Source: a virus (Duplodnaviria > Caudoviricetes). From it: a DNA stretch of 64,000 nucleotides. The notes below the pieces were generated by a model that was not told the DNA's origin, ran no database searches, and worked only from the letters and a program-made list of their open reading frames with translations. Every line of letters starts with the position of its first letter. Position 1 is the stretch's first letter. This document shows positions 6,510-18,859 of the stretch, in pieces. The translations under genes and the position numbers were made by a program. Location: positions 1 to 64,000 of the IMG/VR virus record IMGVR_UViG_2595698357_000001; one strand, 5' to 3'.

Positions 6510-6767
6510 TTATGGGCAGTCAATTATCTCTACAAAGCCCGGCAACCAGTAGTCCAGATCTACCCACATATGGCAGATGGGAACCCCACGAACGGTACAG
6601 CCGGTGAACACGTGCTCGTTCCATTGGTCAAGGGGGATATGGGATTCATAATCAATACCCAAATCCTCCATCACCTGGCGCGGGGTACGCTTGTCATTTG
6701 GATCACTGATGCGCTGGCGAATTACCCGCAGGCGCAGGCTGTTCTCGTCATACTCCCAGTGCCTCAT
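6510..6767 (-). CDS. Hypothetical protein
   Basis: 85 aa ORF, RBS GGAGG, overlaps the upstream stop. Confidence 0.7.
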   Translation of the reverse strand: MRHWEYDENSLRLRVIRQRISDPNDKRTPRQVMEDLGIDYESHIPLDQWNEHVFTGCTVRGVPICHMWVDLDYWLPGFVEIIDCP

Positions 6768-7978
6768 TTCTTACCTCCCAGCATGCTCAACAGGTTGACA
6801 GACTTCGGCTTGACGGCTGGCTCAGCTGCCTCGTTAGGCATCCAGCGTGTACCCTGTTGCAGGTGCCAGATATGGAGTGGCTGGCCGGTCTTAAAGAACA
6901 CATCCATCTTCCACTTCTGGACGCCTGGAACGTGCCCGGCGGGTGCCTTCTCACAAAGCAGGTGATCTGGTAGCCAAAGCGCGCGGGCTTCCCACAATGG
7001 CTTACAGGAGTACTGAGGCCACTCCCGCTCCATGTAGTCGATCTCATCCCAGGTACGTTCAGCATCCCACCCAATGTAACGGGTATTCTTCTCACGGAAG
7101 AACTTCTTGAGCCAGCATGCGCCGGATGTCTCAAAGTTCAGCCGGTTGATGAAGGTAATGTGCCCAAACTCGGCAACGCACTCCTGGAATGCCTGCTCCA
7201 GATTCACCTCAAGGATGTCGCACTCCTCGTCTGTGATAGGGCAACCGTTGATCTTTTTCTTGCCGTGCTTGGTCACCCAGTCATCACGGTTGGACAGGAA
7301 CGCAGCGCCGTTGCGGTTGGACTCACTGCCTTCGCGGTCACGCAGCATGAACCCCGGTACATCAACCCCAAACATGTTACCGAACACCATGTTCAAGGCT
7401 TCCAGGAAGTTCCAGGCGCTCAGGCGTCCGAAGTATTTCCAGGACATCGCTGTGTTCCATAGCGACTCAAACTGCGTTGCTTGGTCACCACATTCCAGCA
7501 TTTCACGGAATGCATCCATCTGGGTGCGACCTTTGAGCCAATCCAGATAGGACTGAACGCAAGGGATCATCTTAGACTTGCGATAACGACAATCGGTGTC
7601 GAAGCGCATGCGGTCGAAGTTCTTGTTGTACCAGTCACAGAAGCGCTGAAACTCTTCAGGCGACTGTGGTGGTACAGGGAACTCACTGTAGATCGTCCAT
7701 GGCCCAATCGCGTTGTAGCAGCAACCCCACAGGAACGACAGCCAGATCTTGCGCTCGATCTTCTGAAGCGCAGGCATGTCTTCTATCGCTTCCACCGCAT
7801 AGTCCATCAGGCGCATCTGCTGGTTGTGCTCTTCGGTATAGGACAGCGCCTCCACCCAAGCCTTGAGCAGATAGGCACGGTTCTCCGGTGCGCGATAGTC
7901 GATATTGAGGTCAATGGGGTACTTCCATTCACCCGGTTGTTGATAGCCCCCGGCTGGAGGCAGTTTTGATATTGTCAT
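6764..7978 (-). CDS. aGPT-PPlase2-type amino acid:DNA transferase (thymidine hypermodification, ViI gp247-like)
   Basis: 404 aa; FDTDCRYRK, HhH-like YFGRLSAWNFLEAL, SNRNGA, ETSGACWLKK; adjacent to the P-loop kinase. Confidence 0.8.
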   Translation of the reverse strand: MTISKLPPAGGYQQPGEWKYPIDLNIDYRAPENRAYLLKAWVEALSYTEEHNQQMRLMDYAVEAIEDMPALQKIERKIWLSFLWGCCYNAIGPWTIYSEFPVPPQSPEEFQRFCDWYNKNFDRMRFDTDCRYRKSKMIPCVQSYLDWLKGRTQMDAFREMLECGDQATQFESLWNTAMSWKYFGRLSAWNFLEALNMVFGNMFGVDVPGFMLRDREGSESNRNGAAFLSNRDDWVTKHGKKKINGCPITDEECDILEVNLEQAFQECVAEFGHITFINRLNFETSGACWLKKFFREKNTRYIGWDAERTWDEIDYMEREWPQYSCKPLWEARALWLPDHLLCEKAPAGHVPGVQKWKMDVFFKTGQPLHIWHLQQGTRWMPNEAAEPAVKPKSVNLLSMLGGKK

Positions 7979-8859
7979 TTCTTGTTCCTTAGCAGCATGG
8001 CCAGCAGGTTGGAACTCTTAGACGGCTGCACCTTCTGTTCAGGGGTGCGACGGGTAGGCTCAGGGCGCGGCTTCTTCTGCTCAACCCGGTGAGCCAGCGG
8101 GTCAGTACCATCAACCCCACGGCACATAGGATGTTGGTCACAGAAATCATAGAACTCCTCTACGAGTTCAGCACGTCGGCCGATGAATCCCAATATAACA
8201 TCACCCACAATTCCGATATTGTAGTCATGAGACAACAAATGTATCCCACCAACCAGCCTTTTTGTTTCACGGTTGGAATACAAAGACGACCGTTTTTCCC
8301 GAAGCAGTTCCTGCACACCAACAAGTTGGGACATCTCAACTCTGGATGCCTCAAATTCTTTAGGATAGGAAACGTTGCGTGCCCAGCCGCCGTCCCCAGC
8401 CTTCTTGCCGGAGCGACCGATGATGCGAGCATCGTACTGCTCGCGGTTGGCATAATGGAAATACAACATGGCCAAGTTGTCCAGTTTGTAGTTGTTGAAC
8501 ATCCATTCAGGACGCCATTTGTCGCTGAGCATCAGCGGTTCACCCTCACACACCAGCGTGTAGCCATCGCTCAGGTACTGGGAGATGAACTCACGGGCGA
8601 TCTCACCCTTACCAACAGCTGCATGGATGGCGTCCATGGAAGTCCAGGACGTCAGGCCGGATTTGTTCGAGCGAGTATACTGGCCGACGAACATTAGCTT
8701 CAACTCTTCAAAAACCAGGCCGAACGGGCGCGTTTTACCGCCATGGGTGTATTCGCGGACAACAGGTTCGTATTTGGTGCGCAGGAACTCTATCAGCTGA
8801 ACGACACGGGTGCCTTTACCCGTGCCACTGGTTCCTTTGATGACAATCATGTTTTTCAT
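7975..8859 (-). CDS. P-loop kinase, putative 5-hmdU DNA kinase (ViI gp243-like)
   Basis: Walker A IKGTSGTGKGT, GQY motif, VCEG, lid RIIGRSG; coupled to the transferase gene. Confidence 0.75.
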   Translation of the reverse strand: MKNMIVIKGTSGTGKGTRVVQLIEFLRTKYEPVVREYTHGGKTRPFGLVFEELKLMFVGQYTRSNKSGLTSWTSMDAIHAAVGKGEIAREFISQYLSDGYTLVCEGEPLMLSDKWRPEWMFNNYKLDNLAMLYFHYANREQYDARIIGRSGKKAGDGGWARNVSYPKEFEASRVEMSQLVGVQELLREKRSSLYSNRETKRLVGGIHLLSHDYNIGIVGDVILGFIGRRAELVEEFYDFCDQHPMCRGVDGTDPLAHRVEQKKPRPEPTRRTPEQKVQPSKSSNLLAMLLRNKK

Positions 8860-9161
8860 GCCACAGCCTCTTTATCAAATGCGATCTTCCAGTTAAGCGC
8901 ACCCTGCCAGGTACACCAGGTCTCGAAATAATAAGGCTGCTCGTCGTGTTGAAAACGGATGCGATACCGGGCGTCGAAGTCATAAACGATATCGACGCTA
9001 TCGTCTATGATGTTCAGGTCCACGAGACGGGCATGCATACGCGTGGCCAATGAGATAGGGTTGGTGGACGTCCGGGCAAACTCCAGGCACGTCTCGTGGA
9101 GTTTCTTGCCCAGCCCTTCATTGATGACATCGCCATCAGCACTCACAATAAACTTTTCCAT
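8856..9161 (-). CDS. Hypothetical protein
   Basis: 101 aa ORF within the operon, RBS AGGTG. Confidence 0.7.
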   Translation of the reverse strand: MEKFIVSADGDVINEGLGKKLHETCLEFARTSTNPISLATRMHARLVDLNIIDDSVDIVYDFDARYRIRFQHDEQPYYFETWCTWQGALNWKIAFDKEAVA

Positions 9162-9168
9162 TTTTCAC

Positions 9169-9915
9169 CTAATTGACGTAATCGTAATGACGCATCAGAA
9201 GTTCGACGATATCAGACATCATCGGGTTCAGGATGTCAAAGTGGTTCATGCCTGGGAACGGCTCGATGGTCAGGTGTTCCAGCACACCACTGGCGCAGCT
9301 CCGCAATGACAGACCTTCGAACTTCTCATAATTGCCCTGAGGGACATAGATCTGGAAGATGCCTTCGGCCGCGCAGTTGACGACATACTTAGGATTGTCA
9401 TCAATAAGCATGTCCAGGTTGACCAGGTGCTTGTCATCGGTGCTGATGAACCCATAGAACATATCACGGAATTCACGCTCAACGAACTGACGTTTGCTGC
9501 GCTCATGCTCCGGCTCACACTTGCTGACCGCGATGAAACGGATATCTGAAAATCGACCAGTGCCCATGAGGCCACGGTACAATTTGGTCAAGAATTCCAC
9601 AGCACCATTGATCGGGGACAGTTTGTCATACAGGCGAGGATCACGCCAGTACATCATCGGCTGGAAGCCGTAACCGGTAGGCGCGCGCTCCATCATCAGA
9701 GGGCACAGATCGCCCTTGAATTCCTTGTAGCAGGTGTCAGTGATAGGACGGAACGTGTACTCCAGCTCACGGGAGCGCGCATACGCCTCAAATGTCGAAC
9801 CCAGGGAGTTGAACTGCGCCAACCATGGGGTGAGGGTGTCAACAACGGTCAAATCAATATCTACACCAACGTGGTAGATCGGCAGGGAAATATCCCCGTT
9901 AACATAATCGCCCAT
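9169..9915 (-). CDS. HAD-superfamily 5'(3')-deoxyribonucleotidase
   Basis: Motif I VDIDLTVVD, PINGAVE, K..VNLDMLIDDNP (motif IV). Confidence 0.8.
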   Translation of the reverse strand: MGDYVNGDISLPIYHVGVDIDLTVVDTLTPWLAQFNSLGSTFEAYARSRELEYTFRPITDTCYKEFKGDLCPLMMERAPTGYGFQPMMYWRDPRLYDKLSPINGAVEFLTKLYRGLMGTGRFSDIRFIAVSKCEPEHERSKRQFVEREFRDMFYGFISTDDKHLVNLDMLIDDNPKYVVNCAAEGIFQIYVPQGNYEKFEGLSLRSCASGVLEHLTIEPFPGMNHFDILNPMMSDIVELLMRHYDYVN

Positions 9916-9919
9916 GGAG

Positions 9920-10219
9920 TTATTCCTTTGGTTGGGTGATGATTAAAAGACAGGCATATTGGCCTTGGCCAACTACCCCAGTGACGGTTCCAGGTTGTTC
10001 CCCGTCAACAATTACTTTCGTGCCGACCGTCATGTTGCCATGGAAGGTCAGCTCAGCTGGAAGCTCTTGGTAAAGATCGCTGTCGCCAGTCAGAGCTCGG
10101 ATACGGCTGATGATATCAGAGCAATAGTTCAGCCGGTTACAGCTGACCAGGCGGCGCTCCAACAGATCTACCAGCTCACGCAGGCGATGGCTGTTGGCGA
10201 TGCGATCATTACTTTCCAT
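9920..10219 (-). CDS. Hypothetical protein
   Basis: MESNDRIAN start with RBS GGAG, overlapping the upstream gene end. Confidence 0.65.
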   Translation of the reverse strand: MESNDRIANSHRLRELVDLLERRLVSCNRLNYCSDIISRIRALTGDSDLYQELPAELTFHGNMTVGTKVIVDGEQPGTVTGVVGQGQYACLLIITQPKE

Positions 10220-10544
10220 CGTCCATCTCCACGTTGTCAAAGCCTGCTTGGGTGCAGCCGTCTTCAGTGCATTCACCATGGAGGACGACCATGTGGTCTT
10301 TCAGGAAGGTGGAGCACGCATACGTCTCAGTCGGATCGGTGTCATCCGCCTGCTCCAGGGCACAGATCGTGCGCATGCTACCGGCGTTGGTGCCACTGAG
10401 AGCAGCATGGCCTTTGACCATAGACTCCATCATGGCTACAGCTTCTGGGTTGGTGAATGATTCGGTGCTGAGGGCAGAGTCAACAGCAGCGCAGGATGTG
10501 GTGGCCAGGCACAGGCCGAAGATTAAAGCGAGTTTCGTTTTCAT
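10209..10544 (-). CDS. Putative lipoprotein or secreted protein
   Basis: Signal peptide MKTKLALIFGLCLATTSC with lipobox-like Cys; four further Cys. Confidence 0.65.
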   Translation of the reverse strand: MKTKLALIFGLCLATTSCAAVDSALSTESFTNPEAVAMMESMVKGHAALSGTNAGSMRTICALEQADDTDPTETYACSTFLKDHMVVLHGECTEDGCTQAGFDNVEMDDGK

Positions 10545-10580
10545 GTGGATAACCTCAATGATTATTGGAGATAGGGGGCT

Positions 10581-10608
10581 AGTATACCGCCCCCGTCTTC
10601 ATATTGAA
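10581..10608 (-). promoter_or_regulatory. TTCAAT-type promoter
   Basis: TTCAAT-N16-TATACT. Confidence 0.55.
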
Positions 10609-10612
10609 AGAA

Positions 10613-13606
10613 TTATCGTTTACCCATCATAGACAACAGGTTAACACGCTTCTTCCAGTTCCAGCCAACGACAGTGAGCAGGGTCTGTATTGGGTCGATG
10701 AAGCTCGACGTGAACAGGCTCTGGTAGTCAACCCACTTCTCCATATCCAGCTCTGGTGCCAGGTAGTCAGGGAATGCCAGGTAACGCTGGCCGATTGGGT
10801 TGTTGTCCTTCAGCAAGACGATGAACACTTTGTCACCAGACTCTATCGGCATCAGGTTGAGGTCAGGCTTACTGTCGATCATGCGGTTGTAGCTGACACA
10901 TGCCTTAGCCGCATAGTGAGCACCGCTGACGAACGCGCCGGAGGAATCCACTGCCTTCTCAATATCAGACACCCCGGACGCACGGGCGATGTCGGCCACA
11001 CCCAACTCCATGTACTCCTTCTTGAACTCGGAGATCATGTCCTGGACTTGCGCTTCCGTACCCAACAGCATCGCCTCATAGCATTTGACAAGACGCTCAC
11101 GGCACCACTCAGGGGTTGTGGACTTACGCGCCTCAAGACCTTTGAATTTGATCTTCGGCTTCTCGTACTTCACGCCCTCGGAGTCGTATACCGCCATGCA
11201 ATACATCTTCTTGGCGCGCCATACCGCATCTGAGGCAATGACCTCACGCTCCCAGACCATGCGCTGCTCGTAGCCATTCATGGTATCGCACAAATCCTGA
11301 CACCATTGTTTGACCAGAGGGGCATAGACGGTCTTGGTCCATTCGTCGATATTCTCAACGATGCGATGTGGGTCTTTCTCTTCTGGCCAATCACGGTTGA
11401 CCAGGCGCTCCAAGGTGATGTAGTTGGAGTCAGTGTCACCGGCGATAACATAGTCCAGCCCGGCGGTTCCCAGCTCCTTGTTGAGGAATGCATCGGTGTG
11501 CTTCTTGTTCCACTTGTTGATCAGCTGACCAGCAGTGGTGATCGCCTCGGAGATACGCAGGTCGAAGTACTCTTTGAACCACACGTTGCCCGTTGCACCA
11601 TAACCGGCGTTCATCAAGATCTTCAGACCTTGCTGTAAAACATCCTGGATGACGGCCTTGCGTTCCCACTCTTCGGCAGCAGCTTCCAGCAGAGGCTTGG
11701 CCAATTCCATGGTTGTGGTATACCACTCCTCATCCCAGAAGCGGGACTTCTTCGCGCTCTCCAGGGAGAATTTTCCTTCCGCCAGCTCCTCACACCAGCC
11801 AGCATATTGCTCATAGCGCAGGCCGGTTGCCTTCTCAACTTTACGCTCGCTGTACACCCAACGCATGATCTCAGACAGGAACGACATCTTGCTGTTGTCA
11901 AAGAACTGTACGTTCGGAGTAAACGACACGTTGTACTCTTTGAGGCACTTGAATTCAAACTTGCCGACAGCGATCAGGTCGTCAACAACCTGGGTACGCT
12001 CGTCAACAGCCTGCATCAGGTGGTCAGCCAACTTGATATAGGCCGCGCGCTTGTTCATCGGCAACGTCATTTCGCGAGAAGCCGCTCTCAGCTCAGCGAC
12101 CATGGCTTCAATGATCTCACGACGTTTGTGCTTGTCGTTGATGATCGTTTCTGGGCCGAGGTTGTACTGCTGGATGATGTGTGGGTAAAGGCTGTTCAAG
12201 TCCTTACTGATCAACCAGCGATACCGGCCGGGCACCACATCCATCACATACGCACCTTCGAAGTCGGTTGGTCCATCCCAGACCTTCTTGATCATCGGCA
12301 CGATGCCCTTCTCATACAGCTTGTAATAGCACAGTGCCAACCAAGGAGCCACAGTCCCCAGGCCGTCACGATAGTTGGATTTGGACTTGTAGGCCAGTAC
12401 GAACATCAGCTGGATGAGACGCAGCTTCTGCTCCAGGCGGTACACCAGCTTGACGTCCTTGATACCATACCGGCAATACTTGGCATAGTCATCAAAGTAC
12501 AAGGTGTTGAGGCTCTTTGATTCGCTGTAGTCCAGCTTCTTCTCACCGAGCTCACAGTACGCGATCCAATCAAGGGAGTAACGCTCACGAGTGGTGTATG
12601 TGTGCTTCTTGTACACCTGCTGCATGTCCATCATCTCAAGGCCGACGAAGTCATAGCTCGTTACTGGGCCACGCTTGTCTTTGATGATACGCTGCTTGAC
12701 GATGCCCCACGGGCTGAGCATATCGACATAGGACTCACCCAGCACACGCATGATGCGCTCTACCAGGTAGGGGGAGTCAAACTGCTCGATGTTCCAGCCT
12801 GTCCAGCCGTCGTATTGACGCTCCGACCAGTGCGCCAGGAATGCCTTCAACAAGTCCTGCTCAGTCTGGAACTCATGATAGATGACTTCAAGGTTCTCAA
12901 TCTGCTCATCCGTCTTGTTGTAGACGAACTTGTTGCGGTCTTTAACGCAGGGCATACCAAAGATGTGATACACGTTGCGCTGCATATCCTGGCACTGGAT
13001 CAGTGAGATAGGGAAGGCAGCGTTCATGTTAACCGCCAGCTCACCACTGCCTGCGTTCCATAAAGCCTGTTCAGCCGTGATATCGCTGTTGATGTAAGAG
13101 CCAGGGAAGTGCTCGCGAATGAAGTCGTGGGATGCCAGCACCTGGCGATGATAACGCTCGGCCTGGGCGCGAGAGCCTTTGAAGGTCTGCTTTTCAATGG
13201 TCGGATGAGGGAATGGTCCTTTGGTCAGTTCCCCGTTCCAGCCTGCCGAGAACACCTCGATATCGACGTTGGCGACATGGATATTGTTGTAATCTGGGGT
13301 TATCGTTCCAGGGAAGTTGTGGGCGATGAATTGGTATTCCCAGGCCGACTGTCCGTACACTGCAGCCCCAACCACATCTTTGTATTCTTCAATGTAATTT
13401 TCTGCGTCACGGATGGAATCGAACTTGCGTTCTGCCAGGGCTTCACCCAGCAGGCCAATTTTATCAACATTGGCATAATCGTGGGTTGGTAAATATAGAG
13501 TCGGCTTGAGTTTTTGACGGATGTTGCGACGGTTCCCGTCGTGGTCAGCAATTCGAATCAACAAATCGTTGCCGCGCCGCGCGACGTTGGTATAGAAGAC
13601 GGACAT
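10613..13606 (-). CDS. 43: DNA polymerase, family B (T4 gp43-like)
   Basis: 997 aa; ExoI VDIEV, GWNIEQFD, YSLD; polymerase motifs DLNSLYPHII, KILMNAGYG, GDTDS, KKMY. Confidence 0.97.
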   Translation of the reverse strand: MSVFYTNVARRGNDLLIRIADHDGNRRNIRQKLKPTLYLPTHDYANVDKIGLLGEALAERKFDSIRDAENYIEEYKDVVGAAVYGQSAWEYQFIAHNFPGTITPDYNNIHVANVDIEVFSAGWNGELTKGPFPHPTIEKQTFKGSRAQAERYHRQVLASHDFIREHFPGSYINSDITAEQALWNAGSGELAVNMNAAFPISLIQCQDMQRNVYHIFGMPCVKDRNKFVYNKTDEQIENLEVIYHEFQTEQDLLKAFLAHWSERQYDGWTGWNIEQFDSPYLVERIMRVLGESYVDMLSPWGIVKQRIIKDKRGPVTSYDFVGLEMMDMQQVYKKHTYTTRERYSLDWIAYCELGEKKLDYSESKSLNTLYFDDYAKYCRYGIKDVKLVYRLEQKLRLIQLMFVLAYKSKSNYRDGLGTVAPWLALCYYKLYEKGIVPMIKKVWDGPTDFEGAYVMDVVPGRYRWLISKDLNSLYPHIIQQYNLGPETIINDKHKRREIIEAMVAELRAASREMTLPMNKRAAYIKLADHLMQAVDERTQVVDDLIAVGKFEFKCLKEYNVSFTPNVQFFDNSKMSFLSEIMRWVYSERKVEKATGLRYEQYAGWCEELAEGKFSLESAKKSRFWDEEWYTTTMELAKPLLEAAAEEWERKAVIQDVLQQGLKILMNAGYGATGNVWFKEYFDLRISEAITTAGQLINKWNKKHTDAFLNKELGTAGLDYVIAGDTDSNYITLERLVNRDWPEEKDPHRIVENIDEWTKTVYAPLVKQWCQDLCDTMNGYEQRMVWEREVIASDAVWRAKKMYCMAVYDSEGVKYEKPKIKFKGLEARKSTTPEWCRERLVKCYEAMLLGTEAQVQDMISEFKKEYMELGVADIARASGVSDIEKAVDSSGAFVSGAHYAAKACVSYNRMIDSKPDLNLMPIESGDKVFIVLLKDNNPIGQRYLAFPDYLAPELDMEKWVDYQSLFTSSFIDPIQTLLTVVGWNWKKRVNLLSMMGKR

Positions 13607-13689
13607 GTTTGGCTCCTGATTTTAACCGTGCCGTTAGCACGTGGCGATATTTAACCCTAAACGGGATCAATGACAAAGGAGTTACGGCC

Positions 13690-14277
13690 ATGGCCATACC
13701 TTTCTTAAACCTGATTCCCGGCGCTATCAAAGGAGTATGGAACTTGGGGTCTGACCTGTTGCAGTACCGCAGAGAGATATCCAAGGCCAAGCACGATATC
13801 AAGCTGGAGGCTATCAAGTCATCCAGTGACTGGGAGATCGCCAAGATCACCGAAGTTGGTGGTTCCTGGAAGGATGAGTTCTGGACTATCGTGCTGGCCG
13901 TTCCTGCTATCCTTATCATGATAGCGCCGGTCGTTGAGTTGATAATGTACCCAGGAGAATATCACAAGGGTGACTTCATCGCTGCAGTTCTCGGTGGTAT
14001 GGTTGCTCTGGACAAAGCCCCTGACTGGTACATAACTGCTCTGTTGACCGCGATCACCGCATCGTTCGGTATCAAAGGATACAACCATTATAAGGCCAAC
14101 GGTCGAAGGGATGCAGCGGCCGATGCCCTTACTGAGTTCGGTGTCAAGGTTGTCAAAAAGGCTACCAGCACCGATAGCAAGTCTCAGCCTGGGTCGCCTG
14201 GGGCGGCTGAAACCGGTAGTGGGAGTGCTGCTTCAAGTTCTGGCGCTGAGGCGTGGCCGGATCTGAGCAAGAAATAA
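13690..14277 (+). CDS. 3TM holin-like membrane protein
   Basis: RBS AAAGGAG; GSWKDEFWTIVLAVP...ALDKAPDWY...ASFG pattern of phage 3TM holin-like proteins. Confidence 0.6.
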   Translation: MAIPFLNLIPGAIKGVWNLGSDLLQYRREISKAKHDIKLEAIKSSSDWEIAKITEVGGSWKDEFWTIVLAVPAILIMIAPVVELIMYPGEYHKGDFIAAVLGGMVALDKAPDWYITALLTAITASFGIKGYNHYKANGRRDAAADALTEFGVKVVKKATSTDSKSQPGSPGAAETGSGSAASSSGAEAWPDLSKK

Positions 14278-14302
14278 TCCAGCGGGCACGGACGCCCTCT
14301 GT

Positions 14303-14328
14303 TTCAATAAACCGTTGGCGGTTATTAT
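14303..14328 (+). promoter_or_regulatory. TTCAAT-N14 promoter
   Basis: TTCAAT-N14-TATTAT. Confidence 0.65.
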
Positions 14329-14356
14329 AGACGCCTTTCATTCTACAGCATTGGTC

Positions 14357-14575
14357 ATGAACGTGTTAGGCAAGAGAATCGTAGTCCATTCCAATAAGAC
14401 GTCTACCCTGCGTGGGCGCATCACCAAATACCGTGAAATTGACAACAGGCACAGCAGAGTCACCCTCATAGACAATGAGTGGGGAATGTCATGGGACATC
14501 AGGGTTCCCAACAGCGCGGTGTCACAGATCGGCAAGGAAATTCAATATAAAGGGGAAAAATTTAAAATTTATTGA
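14357..14575 (+). CDS. Hypothetical protein
   Basis: ATG MNVLGKR downstream of the promoter. Confidence 0.6.
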   Translation: MNVLGKRIVVHSNKTSTLRGRITKYREIDNRHSRVTLIDNEWGMSWDIRVPNSAVSQIGKEIQYKGEKFKIY

Positions 14576-14612
14576 ATAATTGGTTTACTTCTTCAATAAG
14601 TGGGAGTATTAT
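14555..14612 (+). promoter_or_regulatory. Sigma70-type early promoter with AT-rich UP element
   Basis: (G)TTTACT-N17-TATTAT preceded by AAAAATTTAAAATTTATTGAATAAT; GTTTAC is the T4 early -35 consensus. Confidence 0.75.
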
Positions 14613-14653
14613 TGAAAACATAAAGCAGCCCACTTGAAACGAAGGAACTACAA

Positions 14654-14950
14654 ATGACCACACAAGTTATTACCTTGAAAGCGTTTATCCGGTACGGCAC
14701 AAAACGTTTTATGGCTGTAGTTGAGGACAAAGATCCTAACTCCACACAGGTATATGACGCCGTGGAAGGTTCCCGCGAAGCTGTAATTGAGTGGGCTGAA
14801 ATGCACTGGGGGCACCTGGAAGTGACGCCTGCCCAGAACGAAGCTGAGATTGACGCTGAAATTGAACGCCATTTTAGCCCGGCTGCGATTGCAACTGCAG
14901 TGCGCAATGACCGCAACCGCACCAACGCAAACCGCCCTTTCCGCCGTTAA
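14654..14950 (+). CDS. Hypothetical early protein
   Basis: RBS AAGGAA; first gene after the early promoter. Confidence 0.8.
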   Translation: MTTQVITLKAFIRYGTKRFMAVVEDKDPNSTQVYDAVEGSREAVIEWAEMHWGHLEVTPAQNEAEIDAEIERHFSPAAIATAVRNDRNRTNANRPFRR

Positions 14951-14971
14951 TTGAACTGAAGGAACTTTACC

Positions 14972-15319
14972 GTGAAAGCACCTAAACTGAAGTGGAGTGT
15001 TTGCCCCGCCCCAACCGGGCGTTTCCGCTCCTTTGAAAAGCGTGGTTTCCCGTTTGCTGATTATGAAAACGGGCGTCCAGCAGCTAAGATCGAATGTGAC
15101 AAGTCCTATATTCCAGACCACCGCACTGCCACTGACCTGAGCCTCACTGTGTACGTCGCTGAGTGGTATGTTCGTGAAGATGACGACGTCCTGACGTTCA
15201 AATGGCGCCGGGTCAAGAAAACCGCGTCTTCTATCGCCGAGGCTAAAGAAATTGCCGCCATTGTCCTGGAGCGAAACCCAAGCCTGGTCCACCCTGACGT
15301 TCGCAAATACGGAATTTGA
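14972..15319 (+). CDS. Hypothetical early protein
   Basis: GTG start, RBS AAGGAA. Confidence 0.8.
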   Translation: MKAPKLKWSVCPAPTGRFRSFEKRGFPFADYENGRPAAKIECDKSYIPDHRTATDLSLTVYVAEWYVREDDDVLTFKWRRVKKTASSIAEAKEIAAIVLERNPSLVHPDVRKYGI

Positions 15320-15804
15320 AAATGACCAAACAATATACTGAAAGCCGTTTCATGATGACCATCAAAGACGGTGTCCTGCGTAACAAGCCGGTGAACGGTG
15401 AGTTTGAAGTTGTGAACGCCCACCGCATTTATAGCGCATCTGAACACAAGAGTGGCTATGCCCGTGCCGACCGTGACGGTTATGTGCGTGTCAAGATGGA
15501 CGGCAAGCCCACGTATGTGCACTGTAATGCCGCTGACGTGTCCGTGAAGCAAGTCCACGTGCCTGTAGACGTAAGTGCCCCAGTTATCCTGGAAAACGGC
15601 GAGGAGTTGGAACCAGCGGGAAAGGGCACTCATTGGGGCGTCATCATCCAGGCAGACGGCAAGGAAACCCGTTGCAACTTCGTCAAGGACGGGGACTTCT
15701 TCAAAGAAGTGGTGTCAGGATTGTTCTACCACAAGGACGGTGATCCTCTGGTGTCTACCAAGGCCGGGCGGAAGGTCAAGAACGGGCAGTTCACATCGAA
15801 ATAA
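15316..15804 (+). CDS. Hypothetical early protein
   Basis: Coupled ORF (likely ATG at 15322); ends at a convergent hairpin. Confidence 0.75.
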   Translation: MKMTKQYTESRFMMTIKDGVLRNKPVNGEFEVVNAHRIYSASEHKSGYARADRDGYVRVKMDGKPTYVHCNAADVSVKQVHVPVDVSAPVILENGEELEPAGKGTHWGVIIQADGKETRCNFVKDGDFFKEVVSGLFYHKDGDPLVSTKAGRKVKNGQFTSK

Positions 15805-15830
15805 AACAGGGGGCTTTTGCCCCCTTAATC

Positions 15831-16286
15831 TTATTCGCCATCCCAGAAATCGTCATCGCCGTCCACATCACCCAAATCCATGTCGCCAAACTTCGGATCA
15901 GGCAGAACGCCATTGACCTGCAGGTAGTCCATCTCATCGTCATCAATCTGAAGGTCACCAACCACAACGCGGTCTTCACCCTCACCTTCAATGGCGAATG
16001 CGCTGTACGGCTTGCCGCCGATAGTGATGAGCATGATGCTTGGGTCATCTTCAGACACGTGCGCCTGATAGTCTTCAGGCTGTGCTGAGTCCAGGAATGC
16101 GGCCAGGTCAGCAGCGGCCTTTTCCAGGGTGACGCCGTCATCAACACCTGCATAGATTTCTTCAGCGCCGGTATCAGCGCGCTCATAGATCTCAATGGTG
16201 GTGCCGTTGAACGAGCCTACCCACACCAGGCTGTCTTCGCCGTCGGTGTCTTCGTCTTCTTTCAGGAACAATTTGGATTCTAACAT
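15831..16286 (-). CDS. Highly acidic late protein (candidate internal head protein)
   Basis: MLESKLFLKEDEDTDGED..., very D/E-rich; CTAAATA promoter upstream. Confidence 0.75.
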   Translation of the reverse strand: MLESKLFLKEDEDTDGEDSLVWVGSFNGTTIEIYERADTGAEEIYAGVDDGVTLEKAAADLAAFLDSAQPEDYQAHVSEDDPSIMLITIGGKPYSAFAIEGEGEDRVVVGDLQIDDDEMDYLQVNGVLPDPKFGDMDLGDVDGDDDFWDGE

Positions 16287-16321
16287 GATAATACCCCAAT
16301 GATGGTTGAGTCTCATTGGGG

Positions 16322-16328
16322 TATTTAG
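16322..16328 (-). promoter_or_regulatory. Late promoter CTAAATA
   Basis: CTAAATACCC on the minus strand. Confidence 0.7.
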
Positions 16329-16340
16329 CGAGGCTGGGTA

Positions 16341-17216
16341 TTAGTTGCGAGCTAACCAGAATTTGAAGCGAGACCACAAACCCATCTCCAGGAACTTCAC
16401 CTTGGTGGCGAACTCTTCCTTGCTGACACCGTGGTTTCGGTTCAGCACCTGGTAACAGTTCCAGGCCGCAAAGATGCCGCCTTCGTTAGCTTTGTTGATG
16501 GCCTCATAGATCATCAGGTCACGCTTGTCGGCTTCGAACACAGGATCATTCTCAGGAGCCAGCTGGCCGATAGCTTCAGGGTCAAATTTGACTTCAACCC
16601 GTTCAGGTTCCGGACAGTTGTATTCCTTGTTGATGAACTTCAGGCGCTCTGCCAGTTCATCCCGGTTCCCCATTGTACCGAAATACAGGGTGCTCTCGGG
16701 AACCTTGACCGTGACCTTCAGGGTGCCGTCAGTGTAGTCCTGGCCGTTCTTCTCCCACCATTCAGCGAAGATGGCGGACTCTTTCTCCGCATTTTCACTA
16801 TGGTGTGACGCCACGGTACTGGCTGTGTCAGTACTGGAGCGGGATTCAGGTGCCAGGTAGTTGTAACCCAGACCGAACAGAATCTCACGATAGTTGTCAA
16901 CAGAGCCACAAATGGCTGCGAACAATGTGTTGTCGTGATAGTTCAGGATCAGGATATCGCCTTTCTCTATGCCTATGCCGTGATCATTCAGGCTGTGTGC
17001 CTGCTGGACCAGGCCAAAGCGGCGGTGAGCCGGTGCATCCAACATTGCCTTGGTCATCTCGCCGCCAAGGGTAGTGCGGATCTTCAGCTCACCGTCGCGG
17101 ACGATGTAGTAGGGTGCCAGGAACTGGTTGATGGTGTTCACGTTCCCGGTGCAACGATACACGCGCAGCTTTTCGTGGCGTTGCGCTGCTCGTACCCAAT
17201 GCTCAACATTTCTCAT
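16341..17216 (-). CDS. Hypothetical protein
   Basis: 291 aa, RBS GAGG, own promoter. Confidence 0.8.
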   Translation of the reverse strand: MRNVEHWVRAAQRHEKLRVYRCTGNVNTINQFLAPYYIVRDGELKIRTTLGGEMTKAMLDAPAHRRFGLVQQAHSLNDHGIGIEKGDILILNYHDNTLFAAICGSVDNYREILFGLGYNYLAPESRSSTDTASTVASHHSENAEKESAIFAEWWEKNGQDYTDGTLKVTVKVPESTLYFGTMGNRDELAERLKFINKEYNCPEPERVEVKFDPEAIGQLAPENDPVFEADKRDLMIYEAINKANEGGIFAAWNCYQVLNRNHGVSKEEFATKVKFLEMGLWSRFKFWLARN

Positions 17217-17255
17217 GGTAAAGCCTCTTCAATTCAAGTGGATTATTCCAGGGTT

Positions 17256-17281
17256 ATTATCGCGCGAAAGTTAGTATTGAC
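17256..17281 (-). promoter_or_regulatory. TCAAT-N14 promoter
   Basis: GTCAAT-N14-GATAAT. Confidence 0.6.
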
Positions 17282-17541
17282 TAACTATCACCGAATTTCT
17301 CCAGCGTACTGCCCTCGACAAAGATCTTCTTATTACCATCGGCGAAGGCCAACATAATGCCATTGAGGTTCTCAGCGGCATTCTCCGGACTCCTCGCGAC
17401 CACATATGCGCTGTAACCCCCGAAGATAATGCAATACAGCTTGAGATTGGTCTTCTTTGGGTTCACAAACAAGCGAGGAAACGCCAGGGCACACCAGCCC
17501 CCGGCGATAAAGAAACAGATACACGATGCGATGAGCAGCAT
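17281..17541 (-). CDS. Small membrane protein
   Basis: MLLIASCICFFIAGGWCALAF..., two hydrophobic segments. Confidence 0.65.
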   Translation of the reverse strand: MLLIASCICFFIAGGWCALAFPRLFVNPKKTNLKLYCIIFGGYSAYVVARSPENAAENLNGIMLAFADGNKKIFVEGSTLEKFGDS

Positions 17542-17548
17542 GACAGAC

Positions 17549-18859
17549 TCACTTCCCGCGTTTGGCCGCAGGGATAAAATCGTTGACTTCGATGTTATCT
17601 GGAATCGACAGTTCAGGACAGTTGGCGCGCATCGGGTCGATGTACGGCTTGCTGCCCACAATCCAGAACAGAGAATTCTCATTCAGGAGCTCTGGCTTGT
17701 TCTGTTGAACCCAGGTCATCACCTTCCCTTCATAGCGAGGGTGCAGTTCAATTTCCCCCCACTGGTAATCCATCAGGTCATTGTACCGCACCCAGTTGGT
17801 GGTGTGCAGGTCAACATGGTGAACCGTGAAGCGGGGTTGTCCCTTGTCTTCTTTGTTCTCGGACTCAACCCGCAAGGTTTTGTCGCTGAACAGGAGATGC
17901 ATCACGTTGGTGTTCTTGGACTTGGTCTTTCCACCTTCACCGAACCCAGGGTTGTCACGATAATCACGAATCCAGTTGCGGATGTGCGGTAGCCCCAGCT
18001 CACGCCCGATGATATCCAGACGGTCTTCAATGAACTTCAGGCGGTTTGGGCCAATCCCGATGAGCCAGACGTTCTTCAGGTTTGGTTTAGGGAACATCGC
18101 CAGGCCAGTCATGATGCTGCAGGTGCTGTTACAGCTACCGGCCGGGATGATCAGGTCAGTGATATGGTCAGGGATGTTCTGTACCTGATGACCACCCAGC
18201 GCATGGAAGTCCGCTAAGCGACGAGCGGAGTGCTTTTCATGATCCAGGGTAATACCATACTCCAGATAGTATGCATCCGGCTTCGTCTCACTGAGGAGCG
18301 ATAAACAGCGGGGCTGGATGACGGTGTTGTAACCTGAGCCGACGAAGTTGAACTCACTACCGAACCAGGCGCTCATCTCAACCATCTCCGCTTTCATGCA
18401 GGTGGTTGGCTTCGTTGCCCCCAGTACCGTAGTGGTCTTGCCGCCGAAGTGACGAGAAACAGCTGTTGCCATCGGGGATTGAGGTGAACCCATGACCGTA
18501 CCGTGAACGATATCAGGACTGCCGCCCGCCAGGATGTGCTGTTGCATCAGCCAGATTGCCTGACGCAGTTTGGAGCCGTTGATGCCCTGCTTGCCGTCCG
18601 GATAATCAGACAGAGGGGCGAAGTAGTCTTCACGCTTGAACCACACACGTTGCCCCGTCGCTGGGTTCGTGTGCAATTCGTTGGGGGTGAGGGCGAACAG
18701 GTAATCGTCCCACTTGATCTTGGTGCGGTCAAGGCTAAGTACAGGGAAGATGGTCTTTCGGTTCTCCCGCTTGGCGTTCGCCTCAGCCAAAATCTCTGGA
18801 TCGATACCTGCCAAGGCTTCATCGATTTTAGAATCTAAGGCTTTTTCAAATTCGTTCAT
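17549..18859 (-). CDS. PLP-dependent (fold type II) enzyme, putative decarboxylase of thymidine hypermodification (ViI gp226-like)
   Basis: WFKREDY...GINGSKLRQ (PLP lysine), SPQ, IPAGSCNS, LHPRYEGK, LFWIVG. Confidence 0.8.
   Translation of the reverse strand: MNEFEKALDSKIDEALAGIDPEILAEANAKRENRKTIFPVLSLDRTKIKWDDYLFALTPNELHTNPATGQRVWFKREDYFAPLSDYPDGKQGINGSKLRQAIWLMQQHILAGGSPDIVHGTVMGSPQSPMATAVSRHFGGKTTTVLGATKPTTCMKAEMVEMSAWFGSEFNFVGSGYNTVIQPRCLSLLSETKPDAYYLEYGITLDHEKHSARRLADFHALGGHQVQNIPDHITDLIIPAGSCNSTCSIMTGLAMFPKPNLKNVWLIGIGPNRLKFIEDRLDIIGRELGLPHIRNWIRDYRDNPGFGEGGKTKSKNTNVMHLLFSDKTLRVESENKEDKGQPRFTVHHVDLHTTNWVRYNDLMDYQWGEIELHPRYEGKVMTWVQQNKPELLNENSLFWIVGSKPYIDPMRANCPELSIPDNIEVNDFIPAAKRGK

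Follow-up and report, generated by a model that had tools for sequence, protein, structure and literature searches.

We analysed the first 64 kb of the 157,834-base phage genome IMGVR_UViG_2595698357_000001 (this stretch of 64,000 bases is called the window) for a short peptide that recurs in the DNA polymerase and in enzymes of thymidine hypermodification. Along its full length, the core region 6764-13606 shared 98.5% identity with Serratia phage KNP4, and weaker matches were found in 251 further phage records, most of them from Salmonella, Klebsiella, Escherichia and Dickeya phages; the relatives that we examined are Ackermannviridae by classification. Judging from sequence comparisons, the tails of the polymerase, the HMUD2 kinase, the ADDT transferase and an aGPT-Pplase1 homologue, together with a loop copy in a pyridoxal-phosphate (PLP) enzyme, are probably the sliding-clamp-binding motif of this phage lineage, by which the enzymes would dock on the clamp. 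The features concerned are listed below; all tail coordinates include the stop codon.

10613..13606, minus strand: family-B DNA polymerase, gp43 homologue, 997 amino acids (PF00136 and PF03104; phrog_262, 1.5e-297)
10613..10654, minus strand: C-terminal tail of the polymerase, KKRVNLLSMMGKR plus stop, putative sliding-clamp-binding motif (alignment with the end of RB69 gp43)
7975..8859, minus strand: 5-hydroxymethyl-2'-deoxyuridine (5-hmdU) DNA kinase 2, HMUD2, of the ViI gp243 type, 294 amino acids (PF18747, 6.2e-163, full length)
7975..8022, minus strand: tail of the kinase, SKSSNLLAMLLRNKK plus stop, downstream of a variable Pro/Lys-rich linker
6764..7978, minus strand: amino-acid:DNA transferase, ADDT (aGPT-Pplase2), of the ViI gp247 type, 404 amino acids (PF18724, 2.8e-57)
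6764..6811, minus strand: tail of the transferase, KPKSVNLLSMLGGKK plus stop
17549..18859, minus strand: homologue of the PLP-dependent decarboxylase, ViI gp226 type, 436 amino acids (phrog_3650, 3.3e-214)
17888..17923 (by arithmetic), minus strand: internal motif copy, KSKNTNVMHLLF, in a hypervariable loop, residues 313-324 of the PLP enzyme
Genome 70527-71195, outside the window: gp45-type sliding clamp (processivity factor; phrog_223, 2.4e-58)
Genome 73851-75053, outside the window: aGPT-Pplase1 homologue with the tail SANLLNMMRK (PF18723, 1.4e-82)

In the parts of the two phage ViI papers drawn on here, gp243 is Kinase2, which phosphorylates 5-hmdU DNA (Lee 2018, PMC5889632; Lee 2021, PMC8989533), gp247 is a serine:DNA transferase (Lee 2021), and the PF18723 family is the aG/PT-PPlase1 of Lee 2018 (ViI gp160). 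The PLP enzyme gave no Pfam match, phrog_3650 being its sole family match; its PLP nature and function are taken from the account of ViI gp226 in Lee 2021. With homologues of PF18747, PF18724, PF18723, PF18748 and phrog_3650, the genome holds the kinase(s), transferase(s) and PLP decarboxylase of a ViI-type pathway, matching the ViI set of Kinase (PF18748), Kinase2, aGPT-Pplase1, aGPT-Pplase2/ADDT and PLP decarboxylase in the same sources (PMC5889632, PMC8989533). A thymidylate-synthase-like protein is also encoded.

The initial annotation had reported the tails of the polymerase, the aGPT-PPlase2 and the kinase, and the translated open reading frames (ORFs) confirmed every sequence and position, as well as the Pro/Lys-rich stretch before the kinase tail. 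Its claim that all three modifying enzymes carry the motif held and extends to a fourth, the Pplase1 homologue; a fifth enzyme of the pathway, the HMUD1 kinase, lacks the tail.

NLLxM was found six times among the 1182 ORFs of at least 40 amino acids in the six frames of the whole genome. Four of these copies lay at most six residues from the C-terminus, in the polymerase, HMUD2, ADDT and the aGPT-Pplase1 homologue. A regular expression for the tails matched 5 of 197 called genes, the fifth being a tail-tube-like protein, where shuffles predicted 0.09, an expectation that is illustrative, as are all those given below, because the expressions were composed after the data had been seen. The denominators are approximate because the gene sets came from a crude greedy ORF picker, which chose some antisense ORFs, e.g., over the clamp genes of the IMG/VR contig G001 and of Aeromonas phage phiA8-29. 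The four tails differ in codons at synonymous sites, pointing therefore to selection on the peptide; a DNA-level repeat as the source of the shared tails is ruled out by these differences.

The polymerase tail connects the motif to a clamp. In a phmmer search against PDB chains, the C-terminal 195 residues of the polymerase matched RB69 gp43 at about 1e-24, and the tail ...WNWKKRVNLLSM aligned column for column with ...LDYEKKASLFDM of RB69 gp43. The ends ...KKRVNLLSM and ...EKKASLFDM stand opposite each other, the alignment stopping at residue 900 of 903. By this alignment, the polymerase tail is homologous in position to the clamp-binding C-terminus of RB69 gp43. The last 11 residues of RB69 gp43 have been co-crystallized on the hydrophobic patch of the RB69 clamp; in T4, gp43, gp33 and gp55 are the clamp ligands, and their three motifs are interchangeable (as excerpted from PMC2988020, a review that is also our only source for the T4 gp33 and gp55 tails). 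In gp55 and gp33 the clamp motif is joined via a linker, according to the portion of PMC7892883 used.

The phage has such a clamp, and both clamp-loader subunits are encoded directly after its gene (phrog_168, phrog_225); the gene for the aGPT-Pplase1 homologue lies 3 kb downstream of them. Pfam PF09116 alone did not detect the clamp, but PHROGs and a profile search against PDB did: a 25-sequence profile headed by the phage clamp matched RB69 gp45 (1b77/1b8h) at 1.2e-41 and T4 gp45 (1czd) at 3.9e-38, both over the full length. Homologues of gp33 (PF16805, 1.2e-18) and gp55 (phrog_234) are present as well, and with phmmer neither gave matches to PDB chains.

The main evidence comes from the comparison of orthologue tails, which we took from named phages, four complete named genomes, 28 IMG/VR loci and the complete IMG/VR contigs G001 and G002. 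From lineage to lineage, the class of the enzyme tails shifts along with that of the polymerase, gp33 or gp55 tails, in at least four motif classes as read from the sequences. Class A, which resembles NLLxM, occurs in the enteric phages: this genome, CBA120, Ag3, Klebsiella phage May, phiEa2809 and Dickeya phage Kamild. Their polymerases end in [KR]RVNL[LM]xM and the three enzymes in, e.g., SVNLM, SSNVLAMM, VSLLGLL and NNLLSLF. In phiEa2809, gp33 was not found by BLAST.

In Vibrio phage K452, [KR][KR]LW (class B) ends the polymerase, HMUD2, ADDT and Pplase1, and also an 82-residue gp33-like protein, recognized solely by the resemblance of its tail to that of phiA8-29 gp33, and a 107-residue zinc-ribbon protein. 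The expression [KR][KR]L[WF] matched 6 of 217 called ORFs in K452 (0.065 from shuffles), and its polymerase retains a class-A-like NLFALGG upstream of a Lys-rich linker. Contig G002 has RRLF or NRLF at the ends of the polymerase, gp33, the zinc-ribbon protein and HMUD2 (4/193 vs. 0.055). In contig G001 an acidic, T4-like motif, [SN]-x-x-D-[FL]-F, is found on the polymerase, gp33, gp55, HMUD2, ADDT, Pplase1 and the zinc-ribbon protein (7/219 vs. 0.07), so that one class spans the enzymes and all three clamp ligands defined in T4. The motif K-x-x-N-L-L-x-M, earlier proposed as family-wide, is thus clade-specific, the Vibrio and Aeromonas relatives using [KR][KR]LW on their enzymes.

Three cases were mixed: Aeromonas phage phiA8-29 and the IMG/VR loci L072 and L073. 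Their three enzymes end in KKLW, KRLW or RKLW, and their polymerases in the class-A-like VNVLKFF or VNVFSFI. In phiA8-29, gp33 ends in ARLF, of class B like the three enzymes, and gp55 in GVLRFI, having V-L-[KR]-F in common with the polymerase. Each enzyme tail thus matches, by sequence class, the polymerase or gp33 tail of its own genome. The gp55 motif of the lineage fell within one aligned column block in all seven lineages. In this genome it is KGLAQYL, 35-40 residues before the end and followed by a C-terminal extension. Of the two proteins in which the motif had earlier been expected, gp55 thus has a related, non-terminal motif and gp33 the different tail SKKLI. The orthologous positions in gp55 and the single class of G001 connect classes A and B with the T4-like class.

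The pattern was consistent across the 28 IMG/VR loci. By regular expression, class A or B was found on 25/25 polymerase tails, the lineage class (A, B or C) on all 26 ADDT orthologues and on HMUD2 in 26 of the 28 loci, and a tail of these classes on 4/4 Pplase1 homologues; of the two HMUD2 misses, L071 is an evident variant, NVLAIM, and L078 a distant homologue of 31% identity without the motif. Pplase1 homologues occurred 23 times among 80 clamp-centred loci, and all 23 end in a motif of this kind as judged by eye. In Dickeya phage Kamild (L015), L070, L071 and L074, HMUD2 makes up the C-terminal portion of a ~530-residue ORF annotated as a homing endonuclease; the polymerase gene of Kamild is interrupted by homing-endonuclease genes.

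In alignments of the kinase and the transferase, the motif forms a conserved island downstream of a gap-rich linker of low identity. For ADDT (12 sequences), identity dropped from 0.9-1.0 in the core to 0.1-0.5 in the linker (residues 380-391) and returned to 0.9 at SVN. The motif of the PLP enzyme lies in a hypervariable, gap-rich loop flanked by conserved blocks; it was present in 12/12 alignment rows and, judged by eye, had the local class in all six lineages, e.g., NLLDIM in phiEa2809, VSLAGLL in CBA120, KTRKLF in K452, TNKLW in phiA8-29 and ADIANFF in G001. The weaker internal copy claimed for this enzyme was thereby upheld, as its loop co-varies with the lineage class. AlphaFold2 single-chain models were poor for both the PLP enzyme (mean predicted local distance difference test score, pLDDT, 50.2; 272/436 residues below 50) and ADDT (48.2; 266/404).

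As controls we used phages with homologues of the enzymes from further lineages. In Ralstonia phage RP13 and Mycobacterium phage Bane2 no gp45-type clamp was found at E 0.01 or better; their enzyme homologues are present and no tail is common to their proteins. The T4-like Caulobacter phage Cr30 (L182, L183) has a gp45-type clamp. Its polymerase ends in DLSSLFD, an adjoining glycosyltransferase-like protein in DLSKLF and a TET/JBP oxygenase in GATLF; the tail of its ADDT homologue is not clearly alike.

The enzymes most likely ride on the sliding clamp, because the peptide that they share with the polymerase tail changes in step with the clamp-binding tails. The initial annotation had read the shared tail as the clamp-binding peptide of the modifying enzymes; position, the clamp gene and co-variation support this at the sequence level. 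Binding of the peptides to the clamp and whatever effect it has on modification are inferences from these patterns. Each peptide, on its variable linker, would lodge in the hydrophobic patch of the trimeric gp45-type clamp, where gp43, gp33 and gp55 bind in T4/RB69. Clamps loaded at forks and clamps left on new DNA would expose three such patches, on which the kinase, the transferase, Pplase1 and the decarboxylase might dock by their tails or loop, in competition with the polymerase, gp33 and gp55, and act on nearby 5-hmdU. Through docking, the kinase, transferase and decarboxylase would be enriched on newly synthesized 5-hmdU DNA, and the steps from 5-hmdU to 5-phosphomethyl-2'-deoxyuridine, O-serinyl-thymidine and 5-(2-aminoethoxy)methyl-2'-deoxyuridine (5-NeOmdU) would be linked to replication both spatially and temporally.

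If correct, clamp docking would account for the targeting of post-replicative thymidine hypermodification to phage DNA and for its timing with replication. It might also be a reason for the partial modification of thymidines, and the known clamp clients would be joined by an entire enzyme pathway. A stronger version seems to us rather doubtful: that the clamp is a tool-belt or assembly line, whose three pockets are filled by the kinase, transferase and decarboxylase, passing the thymine from one step to the next on newly replicated DNA in competition with the polymerase and gp33/gp55 there, that clamp occupancy sets how much, where and when modification takes place, and that docking extends to further clients, among them a zinc-ribbon ligase adaptor.

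Several observations weigh against docking of the enzymes on the clamp. The gp33 tail of this genome is of class B, unlike the class A of its polymerase and enzymes, and in phiA8-29 the enzyme tails differ in class from the polymerase tail; with two classes within one genome, a single shared pocket is therefore an assumption. Not every enzyme of the pathway would be tethered: HMUD1 (genome 121706-122365, plus strand; PF18748, 1.4e-116; labeled small terminase subunit in PHROGs) was without the lineage tail in all six genomes or lineages, and its N-terminus, inspected for a hidden motif, held nothing convincing. The regular expressions are post hoc and the ORF sets come from a crude caller. The motif alone is not fully specific, as a tail-tube-like protein (genome 117708-118655, minus strand; phrog_3629), with the end EKTNLLSLLKGVTK, has NLLSLL and does not co-vary with the enzyme tails. 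In T4, the share of alpha-glucosylation was explained by promoter strength and not by clamp binding (PMC13216743, in the portion cited), and by analogy the effect of tethering may be modest.

The tail-tube-like protein was rejected as a clamp client, since similar endings remain in lineages whose enzyme tails have changed class; the ending is probably structural and unrelated.

The tails might instead bind some other common component of the replication or late-transcription apparatus, for instance the polymerase body, clamp loader, helicase or single-stranded-DNA-binding protein, or classes A and B might bind two partners. Two motif classes within one genome would fit such an arrangement. We nevertheless regard it as improbable, given the positional homology of the polymerase tail with the clamp-binding tail of RB69 and the single motif class shared in G001 by the polymerase, gp33 and gp55, all of them clamp ligands in T4.

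Less probable still is a variant of the bacterial clamp-binding motif that would recruit the enzymes to host-type beta clamps. Being short hydrophobic C-terminal peptides that begin with an amide residue, the tails loosely resemble the penta- and hexapeptides that bind the bacterial beta clamp. The consensus of the latter is similar to Q-L-[SD]-L-F, but none of the tails of this genome and of the compared lineages starts with Q or fits this spacing. Among phages of gamma-proteobacterial hosts the motif shifts radically (NLLxM, KKLW, RRLF, S-x-x-D-F-F), and the phage clamps themselves have diverged to 31-57% identity across the lineages compared, as would fit a fast-evolving phage partner; the phage also has its own clamp and loader.

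Across six lineages, the clamps of those with the most basic tails were the most acidic (isoelectric point 4.36 in K452 and 4.45 in G002) and the clamp of G001, with acidic tails, the least acidic (5.12), a relation that at n=6 is only suggestive.

Amphipathic membrane-targeting signals, degradation signals or chance resemblance are very unlikely explanations: class A tails do combine a hydrophobic stretch with basic flanks, as in membrane-targeting helices, but the acidic G001 class and the four-residue KKLW class are unfit for a membrane helix, and chance is opposed by the sharing with gp33 and gp55, the co-variation, and 4 to 7 observed tails vs. 0.05 to 0.09 from shuffles.

The proposed docking on the clamp has its closest counterpart in the T4-type clamp clients. 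In both, unrelated proteins of one phage have in common a short hydrophobic motif that lies at the C-terminus or close to it, behind a divergent linker, and here too the gp33 and gp55 homologues bear lineage motifs. The putative clients differ in being DNA base-modifying enzymes, with an enteric motif that is basic-flanked and not acidic, two motif classes within one genome, and an internal motif in the PLP enzyme. For thymidine-hypermodifying enzymes we found no description of clamp docking in full-text literature searches. The word clamp is absent from the main texts of Lee 2018 (PMC5889632) and Lee 2021 (PMC8989533), and the parts of them used here do not discuss the enzyme tails; PMC13229309 uses "clamp" for ParB/KorB only. 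As a concept, however, the idea, for which the initial annotation knew of no description, is preceded by T4 alpha-glucosyltransferase, likewise a post-replicative DNA-hypermodifying enzyme associated with the phage clamp, which co-purifies with gp45 (PMC13216743, citing Sommer 2004). The T4 case comes from pull-downs, with no shared linear motif named in the cited portion of PMC13216743, and concerns a single enzyme acting on hydroxymethylcytosine, as opposed to the multi-enzyme thymidine pathway here. The eukaryotic DNMT1, tethered to PCNA through a PCNA-interacting-protein (PIP) box, similarly couples a DNA-modifying enzyme to replication by a clamp-binding peptide, with another clamp, motif and chemistry and no homology.

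The tails also offer a simple rule by which more clamp clients may be recognized from phage sequences, namely a search for the polymerase or gp33 tail, and this rule already indicates two small proteins. The first is the zinc-ribbon protein, 70-107 amino acids long, encoded directly upstream of the DNA ligase in K452, G002, phiEa2809 and phiA8-29 and near the ligase in CBA120. It has a C-terminal clamp-type motif of its own lineage, and from these features it may be a ligase-to-clamp adaptor. G001 has a weak homologue of 85 amino acids (BLAST E 0.27 and 1.9e-4) with the lineage motif at its end, and no ligase was found in this contig. In this genome the zinc-ribbon protein is fused in frame to the ligase ORF (genome 132759-134456, plus strand), with an internal GLLSLL. 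The ligase, in which the motif had been expected, would be reached through this small protein; on RNase H, also expected to have it, nothing convincing was seen.

The second is a SLOG/YspA-like protein of 147 amino acids just beyond the window (genome 64429-64872, plus strand; PF10686 at 5.5e-05, below the family cut-off). It ends in KPKSKRLI, near-identical to the gp33 tail KPRSKKLI, and its orthologues in CBA120 and phiEa2809 end in KPKTKRLL. By its tail it is a candidate for a further clamp client.

The thymidylate-synthase-like protein, a candidate dUMP hydroxymethylase (genome 122365-123579, plus strand), ends in SKLADLLRKKM; a similar tail was not seen on its relatives in K452, phiA8-29, G001 and G002. 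Directly downstream of the polymerase gene, an ORF of 111 amino acids (window 10209-10544, minus strand) has a lipoprotein-like signal sequence, and a putative lipoprotein is annotated at the matching position in Klebsiella phage May.

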